Below are positions 253 to 6,787 of a DNA stretch of 64,000 nucleotides, one piece after another. This DNA comes from Trichormus sp. ATA11-4-KO1. GTDB lineage: Bacteria; Cyanobacteriota; Cyanobacteriia; Cyanobacteriales; Nostocaceae. The notes below the pieces were generated by a model that saw only the letters and a list, made by a program, of their open reading frames with translations, searched no databases and had not been told where the DNA came from. How positions within the stretch are numbered: the first letter of the stretch is position 1; every line of letters starts with the position of its first letter. The stretch spans positions 1 through 64,000 of the forward strand of contig JAHHIM010000055.1 in assembly GCA_019358915.1 (NCBI GenBank). Direction: 5' to 3'. The position numbers were made by a program, and so were the translations under genes.

Positions 253-606
253 TTAGATAGGTTTTGAGGCTTTTTGAACTAACCAACGACTAAGCAAAAT
301 TACAAAGATAATACATGGAAACAGCCCTAAAGTTGTCGTGAACGCCCCAAAGTTGTATTCAGACAGAAGCAATCCGCCTGTAGTAGCAACCATATAAACT
401 CCACCTGAATAAGCGTACGCAACCAGCATTGTCAGTACCGACTTAAAACGATTTGGCAGCACAGCAGCAATAATCATAAAAATGCCCAGAATGATATCTG
501 CTATCAAAAACTGGTTGAATAATCTGCCATTAACGACCTCCCATCCCTGCCATATAAGTGTCAATCCACCGATCAAAAGCGAAAAAACACGAGCCAATCT
601 AATCAT
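253..606 (-). CDS. Small integral membrane protein (~117 aa, ~4 TM), probable target of the divergent MerR regulator
   Basis: Hydrophobic segments from ATG at 606 (MIRLARVFSLL...). The upstream part of the 200-aa ORF overlaps merR on the opposite strand and is probably non-coding. Confidence 0.7.
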   Translation of the reverse strand: MIRLARVFSLLIGGLTLIWQGWEVVNGRLFNQFLIADIILGIFMIIAAVLPNRFKSVLTMLVAYAYSGGVYMVATTGGLLLSEYNFGAFTTTLGLFPCIIFVILLSRWLVQKASKPI

Positions 607-658
607 TGGTCTACTCCTAAATAATTTGTCATGCTTTGCATAGTTCACACCTTCACAA

Positions 659-690
659 AGGCTAAACCCTGGAGTATACTCCACTGTCAA
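659..690 (-). promoter_or_regulatory. MerR-type promoter/operator: TTGACA, 19-20 bp spacer holding the palindrome TGGAGTATACTCCA, then TAGCCT
   Basis: Consensus -35 at 690-685 (minus strand), perfect 14-bp dyad at 670-683 and an over-long spacer, next to a divergent merR. Confidence 0.75.
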
Positions 691-722
691 GTAGTCTTTT
701 AGGAATTTTGCAGTTAAGTCAT

Positions 723-1079
723 ATGTTGATTGGTGAACTTGTTCAAAAAACAGGGCTTTCAAGAGATACGATTCGTTTTTATGAAAAAATTGGCCTCGTT
801 TCGCCATCTCAACGAAAAGCACGAAGTGGCTATAAAGACTACAGTGATGCCACAATTGAGCGGCTTCTCCTAATTACTCAAGCAAAAGCCTTGGGTTTTA
901 CCCTCTGCGAGATCAAGCAAGGAATTAACGCATGGCAAGATGGTGAATTTTCTCAAGACGAAAAAATTCAAATAATGCAAGACAAAATTGCCCAAGTGAA
1001 TGAGAAAATTCAACAACTCAATAATATCAAGACATATTTGATGGGTAAACTAGACAAAGTCAAGCGAGGAATACTGTGA
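723..1079 (+). CDS. MerR family transcriptional regulator
   Basis: MLIGELVQKTGLSRDTIRFYEKIGL HTH, AKALGFTL motif and C-terminal coiled coil. Confidence 0.92.
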   Translation: MLIGELVQKTGLSRDTIRFYEKIGLVSPSQRKARSGYKDYSDATIERLLLITQAKALGFTLCEIKQGINAWQDGEFSQDEKIQIMQDKIAQVNEKIQQLNNIKTYLMGKLDKVKRGIL

Positions 1080-1234: not shown

Positions 1235-2980
1235 TTGATTCACCCCATTGTATGTTCTAAACATCTGAAAGCAGATATCCAACGACTAAAGCTAATTTCC
1301 CCAGGTTCTATATTTTCATTCACGCTTTGCCTGGGAGTGGCAAGTACAACGTTACTGAGTATAAGCCTTGGCAGCGTTATGGCTCAAATGCCATTCGTAA
1401 CCCATCAAATGGCTGAGAGAACAGTGTCTCAGGTTAACGTGTTATTTGTTAACCCAAGTGTCGCCGATGACACAACGGGTAATGGTAGTGAAGGCGCTCC
1501 TTTGAAGACAATTACCCAAGCTTTGCAAGTAGCCGCCCCCAATACAGTAATTATGCTCTCCCCAGGCATTTATAGTGCGGAAACTGGAGAGGTATTTCCC
1601 CTAGCGCTCAAACCGGGTGTTTCTATTCAAGGTGATACTCGCACCAAAGGACAGGGGATGACGATTCAAGGAGGTGGTGGATACCTCAGCCGCAGTTTTG
1701 GCGGTCAAAACGTCACCATCATCGGAGCAAACCAAGCCGCGTTAACTGGGGTGACAGTAACAAACCCTAATCCCCGTGGTTATGGTTTGTGGATTGAATC
1801 GAGTAATCCAGTCATCACGGAAAACACATTTACTGGTAGTACTCAAGATGGAATTTCCATAGCTGGCAACAGTGCGCCGATAATTAGCAAAAACCATTTT
1901 CATCGCAATGGGGCAAATGGCATCACCATTGGCGGTAATTCCCAGCCCGAAGTGCGGGAAAATGTCTTTGAACAAACGGGCTTTGGCATTAATGTTACTC
2001 AAAATGCCACGCCTATTGTAGTTAGTAATCAAATTCAGCAAAATCGGTCTGGGATTTTAGTCCAAGCCAAAGCTCGCCCAATTTTACGCAATAATTTAAT
2101 TCAAGGTAGTCAAGAAGATGGTTTAGTAGCGATCGCCCAAGCAATGCCAGATTTGGGTAATGCAGCTGAACCAGGCGGTAATGAATTTGTTAATAATACT
2201 CGCTATGACATTAATGCCAGTGCTGCCAAGCAAATGATTTTTGCTTTTGGTAATACCCTAGCTAAAAATCGCATCGCTGGTCAGGTAGATTTCAATCCTC
2301 AAGCAGCCCCCATAGCTAATAACTCAATACCCAATAGTGTGATCTCGGAAATTCCCGCCAATGGAGAAATCACCTTCGCTGCTCCCGGAGTATCCAGTAC
2401 TAATGAGCCTGTAGACCAAGGACAACTAGCCGATACACCACAAAAACCACCGACCCCCAGGACTGCTGGGTTTTCAGTTCTCAGCAGTTTGGCAGCTAGA
2501 GAAGACAATCAAGTCGCTTCTGGGGGAAGGGTGACTGCATTACCAGATGTGCGACCGAATCTGCCACAACTGAATTATGTCCGGATTAATCCCAACACAA
2601 TTGAGTTTGTTGCCCCCCAATTACCGCCTGGAGGACTAAATCAAGAGCAATCATTGCCCACAGCAGCAGACCCTCCCTTTGGTGAATCAGTACTCTTACC
2701 AGCTCCCAATGGCAACACTCGCAACCTGCAAAAAGCGCCAGTACCGCCAACTCATACTGCCAGAGTTCAGCAGGGTGTGCGTTACCGCGTGGTAGTTAAT
2801 GTCGCAACTGATCGGGAACGAGACATAGTGCGAACCTTAGCCCCTGGTGCATTTGCTACCATCTGGCAAGGTCGCAGAGTTATGCAAGTGGGTGTTTTTA
2901 GCGATCGCCGTAATGCCGACGAAATGCTAAAAGTACTCAATAGTAATGGTTTAAAAACTATCGTTGAGCCGTTGAATTAA
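1235..2980 (+). CDS. DUF1565 (parallel beta-helix) exported protein with C-terminal SPOR-like domain
   Basis: LFVNP...GNGS..APLKTITQAL DUF1565 start, beta-helix repeats, Pro-rich linker, C-terminal MQVGVFSDRRNA; start codon uncertain. Confidence 0.75.
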   Translation: MIHPIVCSKHLKADIQRLKLISPGSIFSFTLCLGVASTTLLSISLGSVMAQMPFVTHQMAERTVSQVNVLFVNPSVADDTTGNGSEGAPLKTITQALQVAAPNTVIMLSPGIYSAETGEVFPLALKPGVSIQGDTRTKGQGMTIQGGGGYLSRSFGGQNVTIIGANQAALTGVTVTNPNPRGYGLWIESSNPVITENTFTGSTQDGISIAGNSAPIISKNHFHRNGANGITIGGNSQPEVRENVFEQTGFGINVTQNATPIVVSNQIQQNRSGILVQAKARPILRNNLIQGSQEDGLVAIAQAMPDLGNAAEPGGNEFVNNTRYDINASAAKQMIFAFGNTLAKNRIAGQVDFNPQAAPIANNSIPNSVISEIPANGEITFAAPGVSSTNEPVDQGQLADTPQKPPTPRTAGFSVLSSLAAREDNQVASGGRVTALPDVRPNLPQLNYVRINPNTIEFVAPQLPPGGLNQEQSLPTAADPPFGESVLLPAPNGNTRNLQKAPVPPTHTARVQQGVRYRVVVNVATDRERDIVRTLAPGAFATIWQGRRVMQVGVFSDRRNADEMLKVLNSNGLKTIVEPLN

Positions 2981-3086
2981 TCAAGAAAAAGTTGGCTTAT
3001 CTCTCTGAGAGTATCACAGGGGATAAGCTAACCTGCACAAAGAATGCGCGGCACTTACCCAAAATAACTATGAATAAGAGGTTTAT

Positions 3087-3524
3087 ATGAAACGAGAGGT
3101 GATCACAAAGCGAGATATTCAAAATATCCAAAAGAATGTTGAACCATATGCAGGAGCTATTGACAACCTATCAATTCCAGAAAGAGATGATTATCAATCC
3201 AAGTTACTTAAATATATTCCCACTGAAGTTGTAGCTTTGTATTTTACACTTGATAATATTTTGAAGTCTTCCGTAGCAGACCAGCAATCGATCCAGACTC
3301 TGCTATGGATTATTTTTATCTTATTAATTATATCTACACCAATCTACCTGTGGCGTGTTACTAAAGTTAGGAAGAAAATACAATTACTGATTTCTACTTT
3401 AGCATTTGTTGTTTGGGTATTTGCATTAGGGGGAATTTTTGAAAATTTAGATTGGTATAGGCATTACTATGGAGCATTACTGCTTCCCAGTTTCACATTT
3501 ATAGTGCCTATTATTGAAGGTTGA
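3087..3524 (+). CDS. Hypothetical multi-pass membrane protein (3-4 TM)
   Basis: Good RBS (GAGG), LLKYIPTEVVALY motif followed by hydrophobic helices. Confidence 0.75.
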   Translation: MKREVITKRDIQNIQKNVEPYAGAIDNLSIPERDDYQSKLLKYIPTEVVALYFTLDNILKSSVADQQSIQTLLWIIFILLIISTPIYLWRVTKVRKKIQLLISTLAFVVWVFALGGIFENLDWYRHYYGALLLPSFTFIVPIIEG

Positions 3525-3758
3525 TATGTAGAGAAACAGGCTGAAAAGTTTCTTGTTGTCGGGCTTTTATTAGCAGTTGATGTTTCTAAGTACAACTTTA
3601 GGATAAATTTATGGCGAATTGAGGGTGGAAATTTAAACGCAAAGGAGAGGCAGCGCGTTGCGGGGGTTCCCCCCGTTCGTCGCGCCAAGGTTAGCGCAGA
3701 GTAACGCCAAGGTTTAATCAAGGCAATTTTTTTCGCTACAAACTTGTGAAATCATGTA

Positions 3759-4943
3759 CTAAGAAATTTGCGATATTCCATTATCTAGTACTAAATCAAT
3801 ATCCATCTCACTTAAGACTGTACTAATGGGAATACCATAAGTAATTCCTAGACCATTGTTTCCTCCTTTGAGAGTACCTGCAATGAGGAGAGCTAGAGCA
3901 TAACCATTTTCATCTATGATTAGTGAACCACTGTCTCCTTTAAGACTAAACGGTTTATTTCCTATGCCTTCAAATGCAATGATGTCAGGAAATCGGCAAC
4001 CTAACAAATTTTCATCATAGTTTAAGGTGAGATCGGCATTCATCAGAGCTATTTTTCCCCATGTTTGCCCAGTTCTACGTCCTATCTTAGTAAATTTTAG
4101 GTCTTTGGATACTTTGTTTATATTATCTTTATTGTGAAATCCTTTTAGCCGGCCTACTCCCTGGATTTCGTTTAATTTTACTAAAGATAAATCATTAATT
4201 TTGGCAATAGCTGCATCAACTAAATTAATGCTGTTAGCCTTAAGTTCAATAAAATCAATTAAAATACCAATTTCATTAATAGTAGTTCTATTTTCTTCTC
4301 TAAAAAATATATGGTCACTGAAAGGAGAAGTTAAAATTTTAGGAGGTAGGAAGGATAGTAGTTTCTGTAAAAACTTATTTTTTGGAAAACTCGCATTTCT
4401 TTCTTCTGGTTTTTTATTTAGCTGTTCTGCGTCTTGCATGACTAGTTGATGAAGAAAAACGGCATCCTTTCCCCGTTGACCTTTATTCAAGTTGGCTAGA
4501 ACATGATTATTACTTAATATGAATAAGTCTGAATGTCCACGCTTTTTGACAAAACAACCTAATGTTCCTACAAATTGCTGAGCAGCAATAGGATCACAGT
4601 GAGATATCGCCGCACCAAAACACACCTGGTAACCATAGGGTAATACAGGGCCTGTAACTTGAATATCTATGCTTTCTTCAGGAATCTTGCTAAAAATCGG
4701 AGCAATAATCTTTCTATCACGCTCTTCTGCTATGTGTACAGCAATCTGATAATCTTGCTTGCTACTTTGGCGAATTCCTAAAACTGGCACATGAAATGAA
4801 TCTCTATTTTCATCAGCAGGTGCAGCAAAAGGGTATGCACGCTCTAAACTGTCCCATAAAATGCTACTAGCTTCATTTCTGAGCTTTACAGCCTCTTTAA
4901 ATGCATTATTTTCATGAGATTTATACATGCTTAACATAGACAT
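3759..4943 (-). CDS. Trypsin-like (S1/PA clan, Nal1-like) cytoplasmic serine protease
   Basis: GTLGCFV, LSNNHVL (His), VDAAIA (Asp), KIGRRTGQTWG, GDSGS (Ser); no signal peptide. Confidence 0.85.
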   Translation of the reverse strand: MSMLSMYKSHENNAFKEAVKLRNEASSILWDSLERAYPFAAPADENRDSFHVPVLGIRQSSKQDYQIAVHIAEERDRKIIAPIFSKIPEESIDIQVTGPVLPYGYQVCFGAAISHCDPIAAQQFVGTLGCFVKKRGHSDLFILSNNHVLANLNKGQRGKDAVFLHQLVMQDAEQLNKKPEERNASFPKNKFLQKLLSFLPPKILTSPFSDHIFFREENRTTINEIGILIDFIELKANSINLVDAAIAKINDLSLVKLNEIQGVGRLKGFHNKDNINKVSKDLKFTKIGRRTGQTWGKIALMNADLTLNYDENLLGCRFPDIIAFEGIGNKPFSLKGDSGSLIIDENGYALALLIAGTLKGGNNGLGITYGIPISTVLSEMDIDLVLDNGISQIS

Positions 4944-5264
4944 TATTCAATTAAGCTAATCAGACTTCAGCTATAGTCATGCCGAAGTCTCAATAAATCA
5001 GGGATTTTAACTTATTTCCTTAAATTTTACATATTTTCAGTATATTCCCATATATTCTTTATGTGTTAAATTATATATAAGCATTTTTTGATAAAAACAT
5101 ATTTTTTTAGTCTCTGAGGCAGAAAAGCGCTTCCTTCCTGAGTAGGTAAATGGGCTAAACTCCTTCTCTTACCAGCTTCTTCTGAAGACGGCTACTTTTT
5201 TAAGTTGTATTTCAGAAAACTTTAAGTTTAGCAAAAGTTTAAAAAAACTTATATTACAAAGCAT

Positions 5265-5291
5265 AAAGCCTGGATGAACTCCAGGCTTTTT
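5265..5291. terminator. Intrinsic terminator-like hairpin AAAGCCTGGA-TGAAC-TCCAGGCTTT
   Basis: 10-bp stem with A/T flanks, just downstream of the 5336-5635 gene. Confidence 0.6.
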
Positions 5292-5335
5292 AATAAAAGA
5301 CGTATATTAAAGTTTTGAGCGGAATTCATGCTGTG

Positions 5336-5635
5336 CTAAATTATAATTGCCCCTACAATTTCAGTGTTTACAGGCACTCCTGCAACTTTTTTAGGAAGCT
5401 TTCTAGCAACTTCTTTCGGTAAAGGTGAAGAAAGATTAACTTCAATGGTATAACCTCGACCGCAAGCAGCTATACCGATAGCTTGAAGTTCTCTTTGCCC
5501 TTCTAAGATATGAGTTACCTCTTCTTTAGCAGAATGCGCTTTTTTTAAACACTCTTCTTCATTAGCCTTTTGGGCAGGGTTATTGACCCAGCGAGCCATT
5601 TTGTCAAAAAGAGAATTATTGTGATTATTCTTCAT
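5336..5635 (-). CDS. Small protein resembling the N-terminal (pro/regulatory) domain of Nal1-like proteases
   Basis: AIGI...GYTIEVNL...KLPKKVAGVPVNTEIVGAI pattern parallels LGI...DYQIAVHI...KIPEESIDIQVTGPV in the neighbouring protease. Confidence 0.6.
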   Translation of the reverse strand: MKNNHNNSLFDKMARWVNNPAQKANEEECLKKAHSAKEEVTHILEGQRELQAIGIAACGRGYTIEVNLSSPLPKEVARKLPKKVAGVPVNTEIVGAIII

Positions 5636-5906
5636 CGGAATGTTAAGCTCTACAAAAGGATTTGACTTTATCTGCAACACTTATTATAGCAAGAAAGTGT
5701 TTATGTAATCAATATTTTGAAATTCAAGTTTGATCAAGTTAAATGTTGTCAGTCTAAAAACCAGATTAAATATGCTCAAATCATATTTTCAGCAGATTGT
5801 CTCTGCAAAAATCAAACTTCTAAAATAACTCACACAAATTTTGTTTAGCATTACTAAATATCAATACTTGAGAGCTTCTTATCAGAGTCACCAAAATCTC
5901 AATTTC

Positions 5907-6659
5907 TTAATAGATTTCTGAGTTATTTTGAGCATTGAATTCCTCTTGGAGGTAGACGTGTTGTCGCTTTTCGCTGGACATGGCTTTGAGTTTTGATGTG
6001 AATGAATCAGAGCGATCGCTTGTTGCTGGTGTAAATTGCCCAATTGGGGGATGATTGGCAGATGGTGGCAGTAGTTTTGGCTGTTTGTGAGGTTTTGGTG
6101 ATGGGGAATGTCTGGGAAGATTACCTTGTAAGTTCAGCTTTGTTTTAGCACCAGAGGCAACGGGATTGAGAGTTGAAGACGCTAAAATATTTTCTACCGA
6201 CGTTTCTGCTTCTGCATTTGTCATTTCTAAGGTCGCCGTTTGATGACCATATCCATTATCAACCTCAACAGGTGCGGAATTTGCTGTCATTGGTGATGAT
6301 GGAGAATTCATGACTGGCTGATCGATGATTTGTTGCTTGATAGAAGGAAGTACTGGCGCTGCTAGTTCGGTTAAACTTTCGGGAAATTTGCTACAAATCA
6401 AGCGTTCAAATTCCATATTGAAATGATAAATTGCCTGGCCTCGTCGTTGCCAAAATGCTAATATTTGCTGTACTGAAATTCCTTTATAGCGACCTTGATA
6501 CAGCGCCTCAACTACTGCCAGGTGCAGCCAATTAATGGGGTATTGGGTTTGCCAACGGTTAACTAACTCACTGGCGGTATACCCACTGAGGTCAAAACTG
6601 TAGTGAATTAATAGGGCAATTGCCAAGTCAGCAGATGTTTGCGCGGCTGTTGTTAACAT
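5907..6659 (-). CDS. ftn6: Probable cell-division protein Ftn6 (DnaD-like N-terminal domain plus low-complexity tail)
   Basis: LLIHYSFDL...W...AVVEALYQGRYK.ISVQQIL.FWQRRG conserved cyanobacterial N-domain, recognised from memory. Confidence 0.55.
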   Translation of the reverse strand: MLTTAAQTSADLAIALLIHYSFDLSGYTASELVNRWQTQYPINWLHLAVVEALYQGRYKGISVQQILAFWQRRGQAIYHFNMEFERLICSKFPESLTELAAPVLPSIKQQIIDQPVMNSPSSPMTANSAPVEVDNGYGHQTATLEMTNAEAETSVENILASSTLNPVASGAKTKLNLQGNLPRHSPSPKPHKQPKLLPPSANHPPIGQFTPATSDRSDSFTSKLKAMSSEKRQHVYLQEEFNAQNNSEIY

Positions 6660-6787
6660 AGGACTATTGGCTTCAGGCGTTGGGTATAAATTATCTACCC
6701 AACGCTCATAGCCTAACGTGTTTTTAGCTATAGGATTGGTTACCAAGAGTTTCCAGGTTGATAAGCAGTGTTTTTCATTTTACTTGG

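Follow-up and report, generated by a model that had tools for sequence, protein, structure and literature searches.

Rice NAL1 (PDB 8PME, 8PMM and 7Y77) is a trypsin-fold protease whose His/Asp/Ser triad lies behind a small alpha/beta N-domain, and its residues 89-172 form an ATP-binding domain that makes trimer contacts (PMC12012508; here, as for the other articles cited, we draw on the accessible parts of the text). We describe a bacterial protease of this kind from Trichormus sp. ATA11-4-KO1, encoded within positions 1-64,000 of contig JAHHIM010000055.1 (this whole stretch of 64,000 nucleotides is the window referred to below). Its gene lies together with genes for a membrane protein and for a small protein that resembles the protease's own N-domain, the three open reading frames falling within positions 3087-5680. 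By analogy with described systems, our best reading is that they may work in the manner of a protease-effector module equipped with a stand-alone propeptide inhibitor and, by the features tested, fall outside the Pepco, EACC1, gasdermin and VMAP systems.

Several described systems share features with this locus. The alpha-lytic protease and streptogrisin pro regions (family S1; PDB 2PRO, 3PRO and 4PRO) are nominally the top fold match of the small protein and are matched by sequence by family members, and the alpha-lytic pro region acts in trans. Those enzymes are secreted and carry the pro region only in cis, whereas the enzyme here is signal-less and a second domain is encoded separately. 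SUB1-ProM (MEROPS I9) is a proven stand-alone propeptide-like inhibitor, encoded by a small separate gene beside its proteases, with a propeptide fold and a tail, one residue short, that has been modelled into the active site (PMC6993865); it belongs to the subtilisin clan of eukaryotes and has an unrelated fold, whereas the protease here is bacterial and of the trypsin clan. Pepco (Trypco1/2), EACC1 and bacterial gasdermin are, like the proteins considered here, small non-enzymatic proteins found beside a protease and swapped among protease classes. Trypco1/2 have been placed beside trypsins in VMAP systems (Kaur et al. 2020, PMC7159879), and Pepco (Trypco) and EACC1 have been shown to be cleavage-activated pores (Evans et al. 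2025, PMC12642450). Unlike these, our membrane protein is all-helical and four-pass in its model and has no Pfam match to those families. As in the vWA-MoxR-VMAP ternary systems, relatives of the membrane protein sit between EAD-trypsin and EAD-VMAP genes; unlike in any of these modules, the protease has no fused sensor and is accompanied by its own putative inhibitor.

A NAL1-like protease and a free homologue of its N-domain

The protease (3759..4943, minus strand; 394 amino acids) is a signal-less, trypsin-fold serine protease with the triad H147/D243/S338 and a match to Pfam Nal1_C (PF25819; E 8e-10, 38.7 bits, cut-off 26.1). Rice NAL1 is its sole strong PDB match (sequence E 1e-6, profile E 2e-12). 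The three catalytic residues are invariant across a 111-row alignment and the protein has no hydrophobic signal stretch, in agreement with an earlier note on this DNA, which had called it a cytoplasmic trypsin-like protease with an intact triad. Unlike NAL1, the protease has no long N-terminal segment, which NAL1 needs for its hexamer, its ATP-binding residues are lost, a 35-50-residue insert interrupts the protease domain, and the N-domain also occurs as a separate gene, on which the accessible text of PMC12012508 is silent ('bacteri' has 0 occurrences there). At least 5,104 relatives were found among 8,000 candidates scored, yet the protease is patchily distributed (in 6 of 61 relatives and in 23 of 301 same-family genomes). 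NAL1-like proteases are also encoded at 79 loci on viral contigs (L268-L346).

The N-domain spans residues 12-103 (4635..4910, minus strand), with Pro38-Phe39 in a loop and Pro102-Tyr103 at its end, at the putative pro/mature junction. It has no Pfam match to NAL1_N (PF25608), which the Atlas lists as no more than a weak lead (score 0.81, 17% of members). The small protein (5336..5635, minus strand) comprises 99 amino acids from an ATG, or 114 from an alternative GTG start at 5680, and is predicted to consist of an N-terminal amphipathic helix followed by an alpha-beta-beta-alpha-beta core. Its likeness to the protease is invisible to BLASTP (E 9.5) and weak with a four-row profile (E 0.002), while a 137-row small-family profile aligns by hhalign to protease residues 12-103 over 72 columns (P 80%, E 1.3e-5), in the register in which the earlier note had seen the small protein mirror the protease's N-terminus. 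Of 120 proteases, 27 reach E<0.01 within the N-domain; the best value among reversed controls is 0.067. A bacterial subtype profile (A5) matches NAL1 residues 113-169 (E 7e-6) and the small family (P 97.6%), and the protease N-domain weakly when compared directly (P 24%). These comparisons indicate homology between the small protein, a free-standing domain, and the protease N-domain, with a link to the ATP-binding domain of NAL1. At several A5 loci (L156, L169, L171, L181, L189 and others) the Lys and Asp that contact ATP in NAL1 are retained by the protease N-domain as well as by the free copy. ATP binding by the NAL1-type domain may predate plants.

The model of the small protein (predicted local distance difference test, pLDDT, 86.6) aligns to NAL1 residues 92-172 (Z 5.1, root-mean-square deviation (rmsd) 2.8), and in fold it is closest to alpha-lytic protease pro regions (E 0.047 for the top match in Foldseek; VIA Z 6.5, rmsd 3.2, 67 residues aligned), which tie with the KH-II domain of ribosomal S3 (Z 6.4). 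NAL1 was not among the best 50 matches listed in the wide VIA search. Neither the small protein nor its family falls in any family of Pfam, NCBIfam or PADLOC, and PDB sequence searches with the small-family profile returned nothing useful.

The four-row profile retrieved 197 representatives of the small family, nearly all of 70-110 amino acids. An independent profile placed a small gene within 1.5 kb of the protease at 59 of 80 metagenomic loci; after the profile was iterated on these loci the count was 61 of 80, with the small gene downstream in 55. Among same-family genomes, 21 of 23 protease loci have a small gene nearby, compared with 0 of 75 control loci; of the two misses, one is at a contig end and the other (L200) carries a divergent look-alike, judged by eye. 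Phage-borne proteases mostly lack one (11 of 79 have one nearby). The conserved core is thus the protease with the small gene, in near-obligate pairing, and not the fixed three-part system that the earlier note had put forward: the membrane gene is exchangeable, and its family occurs mostly with unrelated proteases. A phylum-wide search with the small profile, the first look of which is prone to miss short genes, returned our own genome only (1 of 401), and we draw nothing from it. Literature searches gave no description of the protease with a free N-domain, nor of the membrane family, and nothing on Nal1-like proteases, NAL1 in prokaryotes or NAL1 horizontal gene transfer with bacteria. As far as these searches reach, the small and membrane families appear, by sequence, to be two undescribed families.

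Variants of the pair were also seen. In a second Nostocaceae clade (L101-L110, L201-L209) a 382-residue protease is preceded by a pair of small genes, one of which encodes a hydrophobic N-terminus, and of the loci L098/L198, L098 carries a tandem two-domain small version. In P0259 the small domain is fused C-terminally to the protease, possibly through read-through or an assembly artefact. At L212:6960-7277 a 105-amino-acid gene with a Cys/Ala-rich C-terminus lies upstream of a NAL1-like protease and gives the impression of a peptide precursor.

The protease domain contains a clade-specific insert at about residues 166-224 (4272..4448, minus strand). The spacing from catalytic His to Asp is 81-97 residues in the 6 closest proteases versus 48 in 95 of 111, and 32 of the 49 amino-acid changes between our protease and that of a same-genus genome (L009) fall within residues 166-224, with residues 189-197 unchanged. 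We infer a fast-evolving loop around an amphipathic core, which could be a membrane anchor or a trigger loop. Its hydrophobic moment (0.70) lies within the family background (mean 0.57, maximum 0.74), so membrane anchoring is a mere lead. Both the insert and the N-terminal helix of the small protein are amphipathic in this clade only.

The small protein as a putative product-like inhibitor

Small-family proteins most commonly end at +5 relative to the last conserved Gly (53 of 135; 40 of 91 in loci). At +5, Arg is found in 70 proteases, Gln in 11, Leu in 11 and Tyr in 8, and in 61 of 111 the next residue is Ala, a putative P1/P1'-like pattern immediately before the protease domain. Across 64 cognate pairs, whose kin are not independent, none of 2,000 shuffles made residues +2 to +4 as similar as they are in the true pairs, and 30 of the pairs reach +5. 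The junction of our protease reads Pro102-Tyr103-Gly, with the small protein one residue shorter, like the tail of SUB1-ProM, and sister-clade small proteins have Ala-Phe/Tyr at the C-terminus. A small-protein tail that ends at the putative pro/mature junction of the protease is as would be expected of a product-like inhibitor. The earlier note had proposed that the free domain is an adaptor or inhibitor, a decoy propeptide; the homology to the N-domain holds, and tail and fold favour, in sequence and model, the inhibitor.

An unnamed membrane family beside several protease classes

The third gene (3087..3524, plus strand) encodes a 145-amino-acid, four-helix membrane protein of an unnamed family, a candidate cleavage-activated effector. 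Members share an N-terminal MxR(E/Q)(I/V)(I/V)T motif, a flexible linker and a DxYxxRLLKYIPxE motif. The model (pLDDT 85.6 overall) has a low-confidence linker at residues 17-35 (pLDDT 54 for residues 21-30) and, after residue 36 and a conserved Lys-Tyr-Ile-Pro kink, helices at 46-61, 66-90, 97-114 and 126-142; the earlier note's description of a convergent protein with three to four transmembrane helices and a soluble N-tail of about 40 residues agrees with it. In membrane proteins basic loops tend to face the cytoplasm, the positive-inside rule, and the basic loop 90-98 suggests four passes with the N-terminus inside. Compared with L009, the gene has 9 silent and 3 replacement codons.

A word search found 96 relatives, and 245 loci were found in a genome collection, of which 80 were kept. 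No Pfam or PADLOC family takes in more than 4 of 97 members, NCBIfam likewise has no family for the protein, and a PDB sequence search with the family profile gave nothing useful. None of 97 membrane-family members, and none of 137 from the small family, matches the Pfam families of Pepco/Trypco, EACC1 and gasdermin. Identity with Pepco was considered and rejected, given these absent matches and an all-helical model. An N-terminal peptidoglycan-binding domain is carried by three members (e.g. L070:233-937, L235:1492-2202).

In the cyanobacterial order, the membrane family occurs in 25 of 401 genomes. An EAD1/EAD8-Trypsin_2 gene lies directly upstream of the membrane gene in 20 of the 27 other cyanobacterial loci, and a VMAP-C gene adjoins it in 11 of them; a second sample from the same family has the EAD-trypsin gene directly upstream in 18 of 19 new intact loci. 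Across all phyla, a peptidase is near the membrane gene in 41 of the 80 loci: S8 in 33 (one cluster in 30, other S8 in 3), NAL1-like in 5, and C14, C11, M48 and M14 once each, where L026 has both S8 and NAL1-like peptidases and is counted once in the 41. The NAL1-like protease is thus present at 5 of 80 membrane-gene loci, plus L100. The membrane gene was found at none of the 80 metagenomic protease loci. The family recurrently adjoins proteases of several classes (Trypsin_2, S8, NAL1-like, C14 and C11), and the membrane gene is an exchangeable third partner, joined to this protease in about three lineages. It sits in the slot of Trypco/Pepco, an effector of VMAP systems, and the cleavage-activated effector of the earlier note survives as a prediction, in that the family behaves like a protease-linked effector across many genomes. 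It is not named in the accessible text of PMC7159879, whose source data may draw it as an unnamed transmembrane gene, nor in the accessible parts of Evans et al. 2025 (PMC12642450), PMC8195603 and PMC10907252.

Two Bacteroidales arrangements were observed. At L017-L082 (about 28 genomes) a signal-less S8 subtilase immediately precedes the membrane gene, a conserved order, inside a carbohydrate-use region, and at L026:2-4679 a NAL1-like protease, a small gene, a membrane gene, a clostripain and a subtilase form one run.

In a sister clade, a different small hydrophobic third gene lies behind the NAL1-like protease at 5 loci (L193:7761-8147, L194, L195, L196 and L211, e.g. L211:7050-7412). This second unnamed family (120-128 amino acids) has a C-terminal hydrophobic hairpin and an Ala/Pro-Phe/Tyr-Ser linker, lacks a Pfam match, and is a candidate further effector. 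The sister cassettes adjoin or diverge from EAD4-NB-ARC/NACHT (STAND) genes at L193, L194 and L196, a WD40 repeat protein at L195, and an HTH-TRADD-N gene at L200; the STAND and death-like adaptor genes could be their sensors.

A predicted cut site that changes with the neighbouring protease

The flexible N-tail of the membrane protein contains Pro20-Tyr21-Ala22 (3144..3152, plus strand), a predicted cut site. All 7 NAL1-linked copies have Pro-Phe/Tyr in the N-tail, versus 1 of 100 others and 0 of 19 held-out copies. Among database proteins 9 of 95 have it, 7 of them being top matches or the L026 protein and 2 lacking a known context. EAD-trypsin-linked tails instead have Leu/Phe/Tyr-Glu/Gln-small in 19 of 20 copies and in 17 of 18 of the second sample, and their proteases show a Thr...Ala-Leu-His-His pattern, which we take as characteristic of enzymes with Glu/Gln specificity. 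In this clade the NAL1-like proteases themselves have Pro-Phe/Tyr, both in the loop of the N-domain and at the junction, and in the sister clade Ala/Pro-Phe/Tyr is common to the third gene, the protease loop and the small-protein C-terminus. The motif in the membrane N-tail, as read from sequence, thus changes with the class of the neighbouring protease. In a quick tree of 84 rows, with the S8 group thinned to 11, the NAL1 label needs 3 changes, at least 2 of them forced by strong branches.

The insertion and its surroundings

The insert between the core genes holds three genes only, those of the membrane protein, the protease and the small protein, in the AT-rich block that the earlier note had described (guanine-cytosine content of 34.8% for positions 2981-5906 versus 41.7% for the genome; lowest 1.2% of 2,025 windows). 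Among 14 other genomes of the same family, 5 have the flanking genes merely 50-350 bp apart, which makes the block an insertion at a site that is otherwise empty; in the remaining 9 the neighbour is not visible within a 1.5-kb flank. The same-genus genome has the block at the identical site (L009). At L010-L012 the three genes are at other chromosomal sites, on one strand, in the order membrane-small-protease. The trio is thus kept together at differing sites and in differing gene orders (L009, L010-L011, L012, L026, L100).

The closest named homologues are from Nostocales, and our own genome has no paralogue of any of the three genes. The host is rich in HIP1 (52 sites in the window versus 0.29 expected). 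The gap in HIP1 sites emphasized in the earlier note is real (2908-6012) and ordinary, as 324 of 4,860 gaps in the genome are as long and hold 25% of between-site bases; it therefore carries no weight as evidence. No MoxR, vWA, VMAP or EAD gene is present at this locus, the VMAP link being via relatives of the membrane protein. In PADLOC 2.0 the best hit of the membrane protein had E 0.022 (ThsA membrane region), and the other two had no match.

A dispersed repeat of about 170 bp (3586..3760) lies between the convergent 3' ends, outside the module; it has 12 other partial matches in the genome and is missing from L009. A terminator-like hairpin (5265..5289, minus strand) separates the small gene and the protease gene (1 found versus 1.6 expected by chance), and promoter and repeat scans of the locus were at chance level. 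Pfam assigns no family to 5907-6746, which the earlier note had labelled 'ftn6-like'. Elsewhere in the window (253-1079), and unrelated, a MerR-family regulator (708-1079) is divergent from a small membrane protein gene without a Pfam match.

Proposed mechanism and alternative explanations

We consider it marginally probable that the three genes constitute an inhibitor-gated protease with a cleavage-activated membrane effector, likely serving an anti-phage or other conflict response. A latent cytoplasmic NAL1-like protease would be held off both by the N-domain that it carries and by the free copy, a decoy propeptide. The protease would cut after Pro-Phe/Tyr, its own junction at Tyr103 included, and with such a self-cut the N-domain would act as a pro-region. 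The free domain would bind the protease in trans, its C-terminal strand lying in line with the substrate groove. A trigger, perhaps read by the hypervariable insert, would remove or overwhelm the inhibitor, whereupon the protease would cut the flexible N-tail of the membrane protein after Pro20-Tyr21. Loss of about 21 residues would release the activity of the membrane protein, and the outcome would be lost membrane integrity in the infected cell of a filament.

Alternatively, the small protein may be a folding helper or structural subunit needed for activity, acting as a second pro-domain in trans or as a ring-assembly partner, which we judge unlikely. The alpha-lytic pro region folds its enzyme in trans (PMC2289522; bioRxiv 10.1101/2020.08.30.274340), which leaves a folding-helper role open, and the model matches both domains of that region (chain 10-84 and 84-165). 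Some loci carry two small genes or a tandem fusion, and NAL1 trimers form via this domain, which stays attached in the rice enzyme (PMC12012508) and so argues for a structural role. Many proteases, however, do without the small gene, which adjoins 11 of the 79 proteases borne by phages and 61 of the 80 from metagenomes, and its tail length mirrors a cleavage product; the helper and inhibitor roles are not mutually exclusive. That the free domain is instead a nucleotide sensor, gating the protease through ATP or a second messenger, is suggested by its homology to the ATP-binding domain of NAL1 and by other bacterial subtypes in which the equivalents of K139 and D166 are invariant (18 of 18 rows). 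In our small protein, by contrast, a deletion has removed the basic hairpin (R120/R122/K123) and neither K139 nor D166 is retained at its position, and the protease's own N-domain retains the Asp alone and not the basic residues, in a low-confidence alignment. Sensing of ATP or other nucleotides was therefore rejected for this clade, given the loss of the phosphate-binding hairpin, the Lys and the other ATP contacts of NAL1, and it seems to us highly improbable.

The membrane protein, too, may have another role. It could be a signalling step that is cut or bound, or an anchor or sensor that recruits and activates the protease, and no lethal effector; its model matches no known pore, the clade-only amphipathic insert and small-protein helix would fit recruitment to the membrane, and some family members have a peptidoglycan-binding domain. 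We hold this to be improbable, since the family sits where VMAP systems have proven death effectors and there is no large soluble domain to release, the tail being about 21-35 residues. A mere fellow traveller of conflict islands, with the pair as the real unit, would explain why the membrane gene is found at 0 of 80 metagenomic protease loci, has no nearby peptidase at 39 of its own 80, and is convergent here. This is distinctly unlikely, as the trio stays together at differing sites and orders, the tail motif changes with protease class, and the membrane gene is conserved relative to L009.

Other observations weigh against an inhibitor-gated protease with a membrane effector. Our small protein ends at +4 with Ile-Ile-Ile and has no P1-like aromatic, its fold match is tied with KH-II, and the NAL1 domain, as noted, stays attached and makes trimer contacts. 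The insert is without a sensor gene, and metagenomic protease-small pairs sit mostly among ordinary genes. Fold searches with the membrane model gave no known pore and no specific match (best Z 6.6), the gene is convergent with the protease and not co-transcribed, and the peptidoglycan-binding domain of three members means that the N-tail could be outside the cytoplasm. Most S8 cases come from one Bacteroidales lineage, and the 39 loci at which no peptidase was seen are to be read with 99 of 487 neighbours scanned. As for the cut site, the Pro-Phe/Tyr motif was picked after viewing the sequences; 5 of its 7 copies are close kin, that of L100 has the motif at the extreme N-terminus, and that of L026 nests among S8-linked copies, whose tails often have Tyr/Phe-Pro. 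Each tail motif could thus be lineage heritage.

Implications

More broadly, and more tentatively, the membrane proteins may be a new, widespread family of helical death effectors, passed among at least three unrelated protease classes by rewriting the cut site in the N-tail. They would be the missing effector of the cyanobacterial EAD-trypsin/VMAP systems and would here be wired to a pro-domain-guarded relative of NAL1, firing on loss of the inhibitor; we regard this wider proposal as possible, though doubtful. The prediction of cognate and non-cognate cut sites makes the whole reading cheap to test. If it is true, the few bacterial death proteins that proteases activate would be joined by an unnamed all-helical family, and the cyanobacterial VMAP/EAD-trypsin systems would gain a concrete substrate, its predicted cut site included. 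It would further reveal how control is exerted over the bacterial relatives of NAL1, the rice yield protease, and would suggest a pro-region as the origin of NAL1's ATP-binding domain.

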